Sequence record: PQ666542
Origin: Shigella phage sb4
Strand: one strand, 5' to 3'
Length of the DNA: 64,000 nt
Shown: piece after piece, positions 17,301-21,598 of the stretch
How the letters are laid out: the number at the start of each line of letters is the position of its first letter
Position numbering within the stretch: position 1 is the stretch's first letter
The notes under the pieces: generated by a model
Database searches by the model: none
Told to the model about the DNA's origin: nothing
What the model saw: the letters and a program-made list of their open reading frames with translations, nothing else
Position numbers and translations under genes: made by a program

Positions 17301-17618
17301 TTACGCTTTGTCATTTTCTTCTCGGTTAAATCGGTGTTTGCAATGACGGCATTTATAATGAAGAATACTACTCTGCCAATGAATCAATTGAACCTGTTCA
17401 GTACCACATTCAGGACAATTATGAACGTTTTTAGAAGCCCTTTCGCGACGTTCAACCATAGCCATAATGGCATCCCAAGCTGGAGGTTTAAAGTCTAAAT
17501 CATCACAACCATGAATCTTTCCACGAATTTCCAGATCGTCTTCTTCACCAGCCATAATAATTTTTATTAGACTGGAATTACTTGAAGCTGCAATATCTTC
17601 TAATAGACGCTTTTTCAT
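17301..17618 (-). CDS. zinc-ribbon protein
   Basis: 105 aa, C-terminal CPECG...CRHC. Confidence 0.5.
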
Positions 17619-18544
17619 TTCAATACCTCAATAGCATTACGTAAACCATTTGCTTTTGCATTAAGAGCTTTTAACAATTTGGTGTGTTCGGCGATCAGGG
17701 CTTCAACTTCAATTAAACGAGCATTGAGGTATTCACGTTCTTCGCTCAGGTTAACAACCTTTTCTACTTTAGGCTCTTTTACAATTGTCTTATATGAATT
17801 AGGGTTCTTCAGTTTAATTAGAATGCGTGAACTGTATAACATTGAACCATTATCTTCGGTTTCGTCATACATTTCTACTACGTCCATGATTTTTAACATC
17901 ATGCGGAGTTTATAAGACAACGAACGAATAGTTTTGTTGTGCTTATTAATTTCTCTAGAGTTCATGGTGCCGAGATTACGTGAGTAATAATAAGGAACCT
18001 GGATATTAATTAACACTGATGAACCACCTGGCTTATGTGTTACTTCATCAGCAATAACCCAGTCCTTAACATGAACTGTATTTGTACGGTCATCACCAGC
18101 GGTAAATAGTTTGCGAGCATGCTTAAAAAGCATATTCACTTGGGTATTGAATTGACAAGCTAATTTATCAGCAAATTTAGTTTCAGGAATGGTAGATAAC
18201 AAATCAGCCAAATGGGTCTTTTTAACATCGTTAACAATAGTAAATTCAACCAAATCGGTTATAGATGTCGTAGATTTAATGAAGCTCGGCTTCATTAAGT
18301 TTTTAATGTTATCGCGAGCTACAGTAGAAGATAACATACGAGAACGTTTAAACCATTCAAGCAAATTGCCTAATGAATGAGAATAGGCGTTCTGAGTATC
18401 TTTACAGATATGATTTTCCTGGCCAATATATTGAAGGAAATCACGAAGAATATTATTGATTACTGCTCTGTGTCCGATCTGATAATTACGGTGTTTAGCA
18501 ATAAGACTGTCAAAGTAATCAATAAAATGTTCACGAGTTTTCAT
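17615..18544 (-). CDS. hypothetical protein with C-terminal coiled coil (first of four similar ORFs)
   Basis: 309 aa, MKTREHF..., C-terminal heptad-rich region. Confidence 0.6.
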   Translation of the reverse strand: MKTREHFIDYFDSLIAKHRNYQIGHRAVINNILRDFLQYIGQENHICKDTQNAYSHSLGNLLEWFKRSRMLSSTVARDNIKNLMKPSFIKSTTSITDLVEFTIVNDVKKTHLADLLSTIPETKFADKLACQFNTQVNMLFKHARKLFTAGDDRTNTVHVKDWVIADEVTHKPGGSSVLINIQVPYYYSRNLGTMNSREINKHNKTIRSLSYKLRMMLKIMDVVEMYDETEDNGSMLYSSRILIKLKNPNSYKTIVKEPKVEKVVNLSEEREYLNARLIEVEALIAEHTKLLKALNAKANGLRNAIEVLK

Positions 18545-18596
18545 GTTCTTCTCACTTGGTTAATGATTTATATTCCAAGCCATCCTTGGCTTTAAA

Positions 18597-19598
18597 TTAC
18601 TTAATTAACTGTAAAGCTTGTTCAAGACGATCCAGGCGATTAACAGATTCTTCCCAAATCCTTTTAGCTTGCTCATATTCTTTCTGCGCTTTATTAGAAA
18701 TTTCTAGAGCTTCTTTATAAGCTTTTTCTAATGCAATAACTTCTGGACGAATTTCTACCGGTTCAGGCGAATCGTCAAGAATATCCATTAGTTCCTCAAG
18801 GGTAGTTTCTTCTTTAGGAGTATTCACAATTTCCTCACATTTCTGTTGATAAATTTCTTTATCAGTAGGTGAATAAGCACATTTCACTTCATGAAGACTA
18901 ATTACAATTTTATATCCTTCCCAACCACCCATATTTTTGAAAGGATATGTATGAATACTTTTTACAGTTTCCATACAATCCAAAGCCGTTTCTAATTGAT
19001 GAGTTATAGTGCTAGCAATTGAGAAAAATTTATTAATATTCTTTTGGTTAGCTTCTGGTGTAAAAAATTCATAATTCACAAAAATATCTACTTTATTTTT
19101 ATCAATCTCATATTCTTTTACGATAATCATATCAGAAGCCAAAGGATGAATTTGACGATAATCACCATAACATAATTTAGAAGCTGATTTTAAAAGTTTC
19201 TTCTTGAAAAGTCTGAAATTACTAATCCAACGACGAGTAAAAATATTCTTAGGGTCTTCTTTAATATTAAGATGATAAGAATTAACATCACCGAACCAAT
19301 TGTATCCTATTACACCTTTAGTTCGTTTAATTTCTTTCCCAAAATTACCAAGAATATCCCGATTAACCAAATATGAAAGAAGACGAGACCCTTTAAAGAT
19401 TATCTTAATATCATCTTTATCTACGCGGCTAGAAATTTCACGAACTTCATGAATAAATTTACTGGAAGAAACAATACTTGCATCAATACTGCTGAGCCAT
19501 TGATTGATAATAGAAAGAACAGCATTCTGACTAGACATGGGTTTAACTTTATCATTAATAACGCTATTGAATGATTTGATATATTCGTTACGAGTCAT
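18597..19598 (-). CDS. hypothetical protein with C-terminal coiled coil (second of four)
   Basis: Start MTRNEYIKSF placed downstream of early-promoter motif 19628-19656. Confidence 0.55.
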   Translation of the reverse strand: MTRNEYIKSFNSVINDKVKPMSSQNAVLSIINQWLSSIDASIVSSSKFIHEVREISSRVDKDDIKIIFKGSRLLSYLVNRDILGNFGKEIKRTKGVIGYNWFGDVNSYHLNIKEDPKNIFTRRWISNFRLFKKKLLKSASKLCYGDYRQIHPLASDMIIVKEYEIDKNKVDIFVNYEFFTPEANQKNINKFFSIASTITHQLETALDCMETVKSIHTYPFKNMGGWEGYKIVISLHEVKCAYSPTDKEIYQQKCEEIVNTPKEETTLEELMDILDDSPEPVEIRPEVIALEKAYKEALEISNKAQKEYEQAKRIWEESVNRLDRLEQALQLIK

Positions 19599-19627
19599 AA
19601 TAATCTCCTCAGTAGAAAGTAAGAACA

Positions 19628-19656
19628 TTATACCACATCCTTGTGGTAAAGTAAAC
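19628..19656 (-). promoter_or_regulatory. early promoter
   Basis: GTTTAC, 17 nt spacer, GGTATAAT. Confidence 0.5.
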
Positions 19657-20684
19657 TAGTTTAGTGCATTTAGTGCATTGTTCAGTTTAGAACGTTGCTT
19701 CGTAAGATTTTGAACCCTTGATTGAGCTTTTTCTAGCATCTTTTCAGCTTCTAACACTTCATTAGTTGCTTTAACGAGTTCATCATCTACTGCCTTGATG
19801 GACTTTTCAATCGCATCCGCGTGCCATTTTTCAACAGGTTTAAGACTCGGATTTTCAATAGGAAGAAAATTCGCTTTATTGAATTTCCATGCATCCTTAT
19901 TACCTGAGCTATACATCCAAACTTTAGGATCGTTTGATGAGTAATTGGATAAATTTAAATTTAAGTGATCTTGCACTTCCTGCTTTTTCTCTTGCGGGAC
20001 TTCGTCCTTTCTCAAAAAATCGTATTTAAATGAAACGATCATATCAAGTTCATATGTTGTTGTGTCTAATTTAAATCGCTCAAAACGAGGTAAAATCTTA
20101 GACTGAACAGCGGCAACAACATCCATATACTTAAATGCTTCTGTCAACTGCGATTTAAGGCATTCGCAAATTGAAAGAGAATTTTTTGTATTAGGTTTAA
20201 AGCTAATTCGCGCAGTTCTGTTATTTTCTTTTAATGGTCTTACTTCCATCTGAAGAGTATAACCATCAAATTTCAGGTTCTTTAAGTTAATGTCAGAACC
20301 TTTTAATCGACTAGCAGTCGACAAAATTTGCTTTAATTGTCTACGGAATAGAGCAATAAATCTCCATTCAATACGATAATGGTTTGGATTGAAAAATCCA
20401 GATGATAAATCGACCTTACTTTGACCAACGCCTTGAACAAATAGAGGATTTTTATAATCAATAGTATTACAGAAATTGGTGAGTTGCTCACGAGCCGTCA
20501 TTTGTGTAATATATCCTGCTTTACTAAAATTACTCACCAATTCACTGCTATTTAGATATTTAAAGTGATGAATAGCACGATTAACTTTATCAGGATCTAA
20601 ATTATTTTCACACAAAAATGTCATAACATTACGAGTATCGCTGGCAGTACGAACAATATCTTCAATTTGAGAACGAGTTTTCAT
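19656..20684 (-). CDS. hypothetical protein with C-terminal coiled coil (third of four)
   Basis: 342 aa, MKTRSQIEDIV... Confidence 0.6.
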   Translation of the reverse strand: MKTRSQIEDIVRTASDTRNVMTFLCENNLDPDKVNRAIHHFKYLNSSELVSNFSKAGYITQMTAREQLTNFCNTIDYKNPLFVQGVGQSKVDLSSGFFNPNHYRIEWRFIALFRRQLKQILSTASRLKGSDINLKNLKFDGYTLQMEVRPLKENNRTARISFKPNTKNSLSICECLKSQLTEAFKYMDVVAAVQSKILPRFERFKLDTTTYELDMIVSFKYDFLRKDEVPQEKKQEVQDHLNLNLSNYSSNDPKVWMYSSGNKDAWKFNKANFLPIENPSLKPVEKWHADAIEKSIKAVDDELVKATNEVLEAEKMLEKAQSRVQNLTKQRSKLNNALNALN

Positions 20685-20692
20685 TGTATTCC

Positions 20693-21598
20693 TTAAGATT
20701 TAAGTAAATCGACAATTTTAATTAACATTTCACGCTCAGATTTAGCTTTACTACTCAATCCAGATAGTCTGAATATTTCATCATCATATTGCTGAATAGA
20801 AATTTTCAGCTCTTCAATTTGCTTATTAAAATAATCAATTTGTTCAGAATGTTTTTCATTACTACGAACTGGTACAGGTTTCGTAGGCAATGTAGTTGAA
20901 CTGGATTCATCCGGGCGATAAATTAAAATACAACTTGAACCAATAGGGCATTTTGCACCAGATGAATATTCTAATGTTCCAGCTTCTTTTTAAACTTCAA
21001 AAGCTAAACAGAGATGATGACCCATATTGACATAATCTGTAGAGTGAGCTCTGATATAATAATCATCGTCACGAGTACTAAATTTAAAGCATTTAAGGTC
21101 TTCTGTATTATTGGTCTTAAAAATCATTTGTTTATCTAGACCTTTAGCTAATCGAGCGCCTAATGCTAATAATCGTCGTTGATTTTCCCACAAATCCGCA
21201 ATCATTTGATCGAATGATAATTTTTGCATCAGTCGGCCATAAATGTCATATCCTTTATTATAATTACGAAGGATTTCACTCGCGTTAATACGAGACAATG
21301 CTCCAATTTTATTAAGGGCTTTCATAATGCGATTAGATAAACTCATTCCAGATCCGTTCGTTCGCTGCAAATGTTTTTCTAATCCAAATCCAATATCAAC
21401 TTTAAATTTATCTAAAATTTCGGCATGAACGTCTCTGTCAATAACATTCAAATCCAAAGTTGGGTTAAATCTATGAAAAAATTTATCTGGCTCTCCACGG
21501 CGAAATACAGTCCATTCATTCATCATTTTTTTATTAACTAAAGATTTAATTACTGCATTGACATTATTAATTACTACTGACATATTTTCCTCACTCAA
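20693..21598 (-). CDS. hypothetical protein with C-terminal coiled coil (fourth of four); in-frame TAA at 20990-20992
   Basis: Track ORFs 20990-21598 and 20693-20890 are one frame separated by a single stop; about 301 codons. Confidence 0.55.

Follow-up and report, generated by a model that had tools for sequence, protein, structure and literature searches.

Divergent tandem genes nrdC.3 to nrdC.6 of a T4-like Shigella phage as a likely counter-defence family

The nrdC.3 to nrdC.6 locus

The region considered here is an array of four consecutive genes, nrdC.3, nrdC.4, nrdC.5 and nrdC.6, in Shigella phage sb4 (sequence record PQ666542), of which a stretch of 64,000 nucleotides, referred to below as the window, was analyzed as a whole. 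We consider it likely that the four genes are divergent tandem paralogs that derive from one ancestral gene and have diversified as a counter-defence family. Judged by its sequence, the window is a Tequatrovirus (T4-like) genome: positions 17000–22500 gave 746 T4-like matches among phage records by megablast, the best of them covering the full length at 96.4% identity. The array is located between nrdC (glutaredoxin/thioredoxin, 16807–17070) and nrdC.7 to nrdC.11. The first-pass annotation, made from the letters alone, had described four consecutive open reading frames (ORFs) of similar size at this place and proposed a comparison with the nrdC.x ORFs of T4. This comparison identified them as the four minus-strand ORFs that the records of T4 and ime09 alike annotate as nrdC.3 to nrdC.6. 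The coordinates given for the first three (309, 333 and 342 amino acids) are exactly right; the fourth ORF is real, although it had been started at a TTG (21598), 15 nucleotides away from the ATG at 21583 where its relatives begin. The coordinates of all the features are listed in Table 1. Arrays of this kind are ordinary in T-even genomes, where they are widely conserved, and come as no surprise; the novelty, which consists in joining known ORFs into one family, is modest.

Table 1. Features of the nrdC.3–nrdC.6 array and in-frame stops of the window (positions are those of the window).
Feature	Position	Strand	Basis
nrdC.3, 309 aa, MKTREH...	17615..18544	-	ORF list; phrog_1435 match
nrdC.4, 333 aa, MTRNEY...	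18597..19598	-	ORF list; phrog_1435 match; confident structure model
nrdC.5, 342 aa, MKTRSQ...	19656..20684	-	DUF7235 match; T4 orthologue
nrdC.6, 296 codons, MSVVINN..., TAA at codon 198	20693..21583	-	phrog_2257 match; ime09 orthologue
Helix motif 1, nrdC.3, LLEWFKRSRMLSSTVARDNIKNL	18296..18364	-	Same register in independent HHalign pairs
Helix motif 1, equivalents	nrdC.4 19341-19409, nrdC.5 20472-20540, nrdC.6 21260-21328	-	HHalign
Helix motif 2, nrdC.3, F..F......LFKHARKL..GDDR	18086..18175	-	HHalign
Helix motif 2, equivalents	nrdC.4 19155-19241, nrdC.5 20304-20378, nrdC.6 21128-21214	-	HHalign
C-terminal heptad (coiled-coil-like) helix, nrdC.3	17618..17764	-	Heptad permutation test; AlphaFold helices in nrdC.4 and nrdC.5
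Heptad helix, equivalents	nrdC.4 18600-18746, nrdC.5 19659-19838, nrdC.6 20696-20842	-	Heptad test
In-frame TAA of nrdC.6 (TTA, Leu198, in relatives)	20990..20992	-	Comparison with T4 and ime09
Promoter-like site, sigma-70/T4-early type (TTTACT, 17 nt spacer, TATAAT, with TG)	19627..19655	-	10/12 consensus matches
In-frame stops (a)	1160-1162, 1454-1456, 1815-1817, 6953-6955, 11547-11549, 15102-15104, 16044-16046, 16065-16067, 17183-17185		
In-frame stops (b)	20990-20992, 22261-22263, 22453-22455, 28895-28897, 29750-29752, 29777-29779, 32481-32483, 35653-35661, 49404-49406		
In-frame stops (c)	51480-51485, 52661-52663, 53792-53794, 55160-55162, 58064-58066, 59814-59816, 60645-60647, 63266-63268		

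Two of the genes are already joined in the databases. Both nrdC.3 and nrdC.4 match phrog_1435 end to end (E 4.5e-111 and 3.6e-163) and are assigned to Pfam PF26897, the latter indirectly, as this model had been precomputed on homologues 94–95% identical to each of them. Their paralogy is therefore on record, in a family of unknown function. nrdC.5 and nrdC.6 stand outside it and are kept as separate families, nrdC.5 as phrog_2351 and DUF7235 (PF23882; E 5.2e-123, 410.8 bits over a cut-off of 30, model positions 1–307 of 307) and nrdC.6 as phrog_2257 with no Pfam family. The DUF7235 model in the local Pfam found no match in nrdC.3, nrdC.4 or nrdC.6. For these three proteins nothing in that copy, which is without the PF26897 model, came above threshold (PHL, DUF3905 and Prefoldin stayed below their cut-offs), the NCBIfam search of the proteins gave nothing above cut-off, and sequence profiles against the PDB returned only designed helical repeats and noise. 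In GenBank records, nrdC.3 to nrdC.11 commonly carry the labels “thioredoxin” or “Mur ligase domain-containing protein.” Neither name was supported by any family search (Pfam, PHROG, NCBIfam), and they appear to be a propagation of the nrdC locus name, an error that users of the “thioredoxin” labels on these genes should be warned of.

Common descent of the four proteins

That direct similarity among the four is weak, as had been noticed by eye, was borne out by BLASTP, in which all six pairs gave E values of at least 0.068 or no match. We have compared instead family alignments, built from three protein searches and from the nrdC-region loci of 29 phage genomes and viral contigs that span Tequatrovirus, Dhakavirus-like phages, Mosigvirus, Karamvirus, Gelderlandvirus, Winklervirus, Tegunavirus and Acinetobacter phages. 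When IMG/VR was scanned with the alignment of nrdC.4, only 13 close loci came up. At this level nrdC.3 and nrdC.4 are clearly related (HHalign 98%, E 6e-14), and the merged nrdC.3 and nrdC.4 profile matches nrdC.5 (with the Gravdalen protein added) over 236 colinear columns (95.7%, E 9e-9), a match that persists when the last 55 residues are taken off (91%, E 1.1e-6). The groups are bridged by a Karamvirus protein of 332 amino acids, Melville gp079 and a Gravdalen protein of 347 amino acids; the profile made of the first two matches both nrdC.3 with nrdC.4 (93%, E 2.7e-7) and nrdC.5 (96%, E 7.2e-9). On these profile alignments we hold with high confidence that nrdC.3, nrdC.4 and nrdC.5 are homologous. 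Among other sequences that might have served as bridges or relatives, L017_8250-9224 was rejected, as it clusters with a TevII-like homing endonuclease, and so were P0094 and P0095, which are chimeric assemblies.

The case of nrdC.6 is less straightforward. It matches the merged profile of the superfamily over 210 colinear columns (94.4%, E 9.3e-8) and the Karamvirus family alone at 51% (E 1.5e-4), over 191 colinear columns largely outside the coiled coil at its C terminus, although the coil-free match to the merged Karamvirus and Melville profile drops to E 0.03. The alternative is that only the first three proteins are related and that nrdC.6 is an unrelated neighbor by chance, its coiled coil being convergent. 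This would account for its start without the M(K)TR of the others and for its failure to match any single family profile significantly (<10%, E 0.0036–0.083). Its family is also narrow, since only 9 matches to the N-terminal part were obtained when 1.84 billion representatives were searched exhaustively with HMMER; the profile could not be deepened and is therefore weak. Moreover, the coil supplies part of the full-length score, because nrdC.6 with a shuffled N-terminal part and the coil intact still reaches E 0.016–0.03. However, when the coil was removed from both sides the match remained (89%, E 2.3e-6), and it falls precisely on the helix pair conserved among nrdC.3, nrdC.4 and nrdC.5. The same register was found in three independent pairwise comparisons. 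Reversed and unrelated controls for this link gave E values of 0.039 or more, and nrdC.6 keeps a constant place at the nrdC.10 end of the array wherever it is found. We thus regard chance neighborhood as unlikely and nrdC.6 as probably a distant member of the superfamily.

As a reference, 44 control comparisons were carried out in all and gave E values of at least 0.003. They include 32 with nrdC.10, nrdC.11 and six other ORFs of the window (at least 0.039), six more against merged profiles (at least 0.1), the reversed nrdC.6 (0.17), the coil alone (0.003) and the N-terminal shuffle mentioned above. The first-pass annotation had suggested divergent paralogs and named HHalign as the way to decide; profile similarity does link the four, strongly among nrdC.3, nrdC.4 and nrdC.5 (E 6e-14 to 9e-9) and moderately for nrdC.6. 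What is new here is that families kept apart by the databases are united, at the profile level, in a superfamily with a proven anti-Dsr1 gene among its members (see below), together with the domain logic of this superfamily.

Architecture of the proteins

The four proteins have a common build. Their N-terminal part is helical and contains two conserved helices; a variable alpha/beta middle and a linker follow, and a heptad helix of about 50 residues forms the C terminus. An M(K)TRxxYI motif opens three of the four. The first conserved helix reads LLEWFKRSRMLSSTVARDNIKNL, IKIIFKGSRLLSYLVNRDILGNF, LVSNFSKAGYITQMTAREQLTNF and IMKALNKIGALSRINASEILRNY across the four, and the second has the general form F...F......LLK.A.+L..G. 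The tails all end in phi-x-x-L-K/N (...AIEVLK, ...ALQLIK, ...ALNALN and ...IVDLLKS).

The heptad-rich C-terminal segments noticed in the first reading withstood a permutation test. Over the last 49 residues, read in one register, hydrophobic residues occupy 0.86, 0.79, 0.93 and 0.86 of the a and d positions in nrdC.3, nrdC.4, nrdC.5 and nrdC.6, respectively, and 49, 38, 0 and 4 of 5000 shuffles of the tail came as high. This occupancy test was used in place of a heptad hydrophobic-moment test against whole-protein shuffles, which was not discriminating. Such a coil would most likely drive oligomerization.

Structure prediction, which had been proposed as a further check, was confident for nrdC.4 and poor for nrdC.5. 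The AlphaFold2 model of nrdC.4 has a mean predicted local distance difference test (pLDDT) score of 84.4 and consists of N-terminal helices (residues 3–84), an alpha/beta part at 88–235 (strands 88–110, helices 119–142, strands 158–174, helix 185–208, strands 212–235), a poorly ordered linker and an uninterrupted terminal helix of 48 residues (285–332). The model of nrdC.5, made from a shallow alignment, has a pLDDT of 50, because of which it was kept out of the fold searches. In it the elements follow one another as in nrdC.4 (helix, two strands, helix, two strands, linker, long helix), with a single terminal helix of 59 residues (283–341). Against predicted viral structures, Foldseek matched the nrdC.4 model to uncharacterized proteins of 300–370 amino acids in Straboviridae (E 1e-7 to 1e-4), among them two adjacent genes of Acinetobacter phage Acj61 and proteins of Pectobacterium PM2, Klebsiella Mineola, Enterobacter IME523, Erwinia Cronus, Yersinia fHe-Yen9-01 and Serratia PS2. 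These many matches indicate that the fold family is much wider than the sequence families. The protein matched in Yersinia phage fHe-Yen9-01 has 313 amino acids; in this phage an ORF of 313 amino acids (gp111) is found upstream of nrdC.10, and the two were equated by organism and length only.

Against the PDB, no Foldseek match of the nrdC.4 model was significant, the best having E 0.05, with lambda gpU at E 0.35–0.9. This faint resemblance of the middle domain to a tail-terminator or tail-completion fold raises the possibility that the proteins are morphogenetic or associated with the virion. We find this very improbable. Besides the lack of a significant match, the array lies on the minus strand, which is transcribed early here, and belongs to the accessory region from nrdC to tk, where it is flanked by nrdC and nrdC.10, whereas the tail and baseplate genes are found at 45–64 kb of the window. 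nrdC.5 is described as early and non-essential (PMC9391042), and in T4 itself the terminators are gp3 and gp15. Tail terminators (lambda gpU, T5 p142, those like SPP1 gp17, DUF3168) have no sequence similarity to the nrdC.3 to nrdC.6 proteins, belong to another genomic module and another expression class, and have no counterpart to their extra N-terminal helical and C-terminal coiled-coil parts.

Variation of the array among phages

In Tequatrovirus the order is nrdC.10, nrdC.6, nrdC.5, nrdC.4, nrdC.3. The number of copies differs by genus: four in Tequatrovirus, three in Dhakavirus-like phages (nrdC.6, nrdC.5, nrdC.4) and in Mosigvirus (nrdC.6, nrdC.5, nrdC.3), and one in Karamvirus and others. 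nrdC.6 occupies the nrdC.10 end in every locus of the first three groups where it was found. In the genera with a single member (Gelderlandvirus, Karamvirus, Tegunavirus and Winklervirus; loci L019–L021, L024 and L026–L029), that member is always preceded by a protein of about 258 amino acids, annotated as phrog_4750 in one Karamvirus record. The family of this protein, which adjoins the lone superfamily member in Karamvirus as well as in other genera, had no significant link to the superfamily.

Copies have also been lost or broken in nature. One protein of 299 amino acids (P0092), present in three contigs, one of them of 167 kb, consists of residues 146–274 of nrdC.5 fused in frame to residues 129–309 of nrdC.3. 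It is a natural deletion chimera from which nrdC.4 has been lost, with the junction at a short FN(K/T) microhomology. In a Tequatrovirus contig from IMG/VR (L012, 5971–7003) nrdC.4 is split into two ORFs of 193 and 158 amino acids.

The nrdC.3 of the window is itself unusual. Among about 100 genes that were compared with T4 it diverges the most, with 58% identity to T4 nrdC.3 and 74–76% to the nrdC.3 of Mosigvirus. In bins of 40 residues, the first 80 residues or so are 80–82% identical to T4 nrdC.3, and the middle is 82–92% identical to that of the Mosigvirus Shf125875 and only 32–57% to that of T4 (40–57% over residues about 81–160). It is a mosaic allele, which suggests that the middle domain was swapped between genera. 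The C-terminal tip, on the other hand, is the best conserved part in distant comparisons. Taken from sequence comparison, the change in copy number, the natural loss and breakage and the hypervariable, mosaic middle form a pattern that fits arms-race genes.

nrdC.5, the Dsr1 defence and the putative role of the family

The clearest indication of function comes from nrdC.5. The gene of the window is 93% identical to T4 nrdC.5 over its full length, with the same neighbors. Neither ECOR17 nor MG1655 with dsr1 of ECOR17 supported growth of a T4 deletion clone, and T4 nrdC.5 on a plasmid restored plating of the deletion phage on MG1655 with dsr1 from ECOR17; the gene was described as early, non-essential and dispensable on laboratory hosts (Srikant, Guegler and Laub, eLife 2022; PMC9391042). 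Dsr1 is a defence protein with a SIR2 domain; its sensor, which Avs7 has as well, recognizes the major capsid protein of the phage (PMC13581612). We infer that nrdC.5 of the window would neutralize Dsr1, a sirtuin defence that depletes nicotinamide adenine dinucleotide (NAD), as its T4 orthologue does. A purely functional analogy can be drawn with DSAD1, a phage protein that switches off DSR2, a SIR2-domain NADase of Bacillus. Both would counter an NADase of the SIR2 type that responds to a structural protein of the phage, although the partner of DSAD1 senses the tail tube and Dsr1, the target of nrdC.5, the major capsid protein.

Two near neighbors of the array also counter host defences, gp49.2 inhibiting OLD (PMC13096335) and nrdC.1 inhibiting Septu (bioRxiv 10.1101/2025.11.20.689424). 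Because nrdC.5 overcomes Dsr1 and these neighbors act against defence, the array is best read as a counter-defence family. The anti-defence role that the first-pass annotation had thought typical of such families is thus supported by the published experiments for T4 nrdC.5, and for nrdC.3, nrdC.4 and nrdC.6 it is suggested by paralogy and context. Since their paralog blocks Dsr1, these three are good candidate inhibitors of other host defences. They share with T4 NrdC.5 the architecture and a kinship at the profile level but are at most about 12–25% identical to it in profile alignments, and could, as sisters of nrdC.5, inhibit further immune proteins of the host or different variants of Dsr1.

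The variation described above (the change in copy number, the broken copies, the mosaic middle of nrdC.3 and the conserved C-terminal tip) leads us to propose how such proteins may work. A constant scaffold and an oligomerizing coil would carry an exchangeable middle domain; this variable domain would be the target-binding surface, open to exchange between members, and the coil could provide multivalent binding to defence proteins that are themselves oligomeric. A variant of this idea, which we consider rather improbable, is that the proteins are decoys. Their middle domain, weakly terminator-like, would mimic conserved virion proteins and occupy the sensor domains by which receptors of the Dsr1/Avs7 and other Avs types recognize shapes, before the late structural proteins appear, with one receptor for each paralog and a coil that matches the oligomer of the receptor.

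A different possibility is that the family has an early function unrelated to immune evasion, be it take-over of the host, superinfection exclusion or something else, and that the effect on Dsr1 is indirect, for example through timing or NAD metabolism. In its favor, the published evidence for nrdC.5 is genetic rescue only, with no binding or biochemical data found, and searches of Pfam, NCBIfam and PDB sequences revealed no enzymatic or known-inhibitor domain. Yet nrdC.5 expressed alone suffices to restore infection of cells that have only dsr1, and the genes are dispensable on laboratory hosts (PMC9391042). Natural loss or breakage (the frameshift in the T4 reference described below, the split nrdC.4 and the chimera), copy number that differs by genus and a hypervariable, mosaic middle are hallmarks of an arms race, and the adjoining genes are counter-defence genes. 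We give an indirect effect little credit, and a diversified counter-defence family remains the likely explanation. Several points weigh against it nonetheless. The searchable literature contained no mention of a function for nrdC.3, nrdC.4 or nrdC.6 and nothing on the mechanism by which nrdC.5 acts against Dsr1. The merged alignments were built by ourselves and are shallow (effective number of sequences, Neff, about 2 in several families), and it is only with merged profiles that nrdC.6 reached significance. The common fold was seen directly only in nrdC.4 and its relatives in other phages, and oligomerization by the coil rests solely on heptad statistics.

If this reading is right, three hypothetical proteins of more than 700 sequenced T-even phages become specific anti-defence candidates. 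The conserved helical scaffold and coil with a swappable middle would also offer a structural logic for engineering, or for predicting the host range of, therapeutic T4-like phages.

The interrupted nrdC.6 and in-frame stops across the window

The in-frame TAA that had been noticed in the fourth ORF is present in the sequence. It arises by a single T-to-A change from the TTA (Leu198) of T4 and ime09, and the 98 codons that follow are intact and conserved. Both parts match phrog_2257, the N-terminal 197 amino acids at E 2.4e-97 (profile 1–190) and the 98 codons after the stop at E 1.3e-48 (profile 210–303), compared to E 1.1e-151 for the intact ime09 orthologue of 296 amino acids. However, the stop does not mark decay of this gene in particular, because about 30 in-frame stops are scattered over the window, some of them in essential genes. 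It is probably a matter of quality or noise in the sequence record rather than a loss of nrdC.6.

In the T4 reference (NC_000866; L002, 10067–10894) nrdC.6 has 275 amino acids. One nucleotide that is present in the window and in ime09 is missing there, and the frameshift that results removes the C-terminal coiled coil. The DNA after the frameshift, original stop included, has stayed conserved; either the lesion is recent or the reference is in error.

The stops, mostly TAA, were detected by comparison with T4 proteins, in genes that are intact in T4: 62 (two), 44, 47, 55.5, 49, 49.1 (two), nrdC.1, nrdC.6, nrdC.8 (two), rI.1, tk.2 (two), vs.3, e (two), 5, 6 (two), 7 (three), 10, 12 (two) and 13. 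Those that are essential are 44, 62, 47, 49, 5, 6, 7, 10, 12 and 13. Reassignment or suppression of TAA was considered and rejected. The replaced residues are varied (E, L, Q, Y, K, S, G, C and W) and all reachable from a stop by point substitution, and none of the ten transfer RNAs (tRNAs) of the window has a suppressor anticodon. At the codon level the two versions were one base apart in six of seven cases, the exception being a TTG to TAA change in nrdC.8, which needs two. The stops have the look of noise in the record from random substitution, or of changes that were introduced, and not of recoding or biology.

nrdC.1 (17072–17314, minus strand) has a TAA at 17183–17185 in place of Tyr44 and is otherwise 97.5% identical to T4. 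nrdD (13020–14835, minus strand) appears as two ORF pieces of 262 and 248 amino acids, split by an in-frame TAA at 14044–14046, and seems to be without the I-TevII intron of T4.

Start of nrdC.4 and other features

The mechanical ORF of nrdC.4 extends further upstream, to an ATG at 19628. We place the true start at the ATG of 19598, because a GAGGAG Shine-Dalgarno sequence precedes it by 6 nucleotides and the ATG at 19628 sits within a -10 box. That box belongs to the promoter-like site of Table 1, in the gap of 57 nucleotides between the stop of nrdC.5 and the start of nrdC.4, where it is overlapped by a stem-loop of 7 bp (19631–19648, minus strand). nrdC.4 may have its own promoter; promoter-like consensus matches in the region are no more numerous than in shuffled sequence.

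T4 mobC and segB had no match in the window. The tRNA cluster (41565–42396, minus strand) contains 10 genes, for Arg, Asn, Tyr, Met(cat), Thr, Ser, Pro, Gly, Leu and Gln; T4 has 8, and Asn and Tyr are the additional ones of the window.

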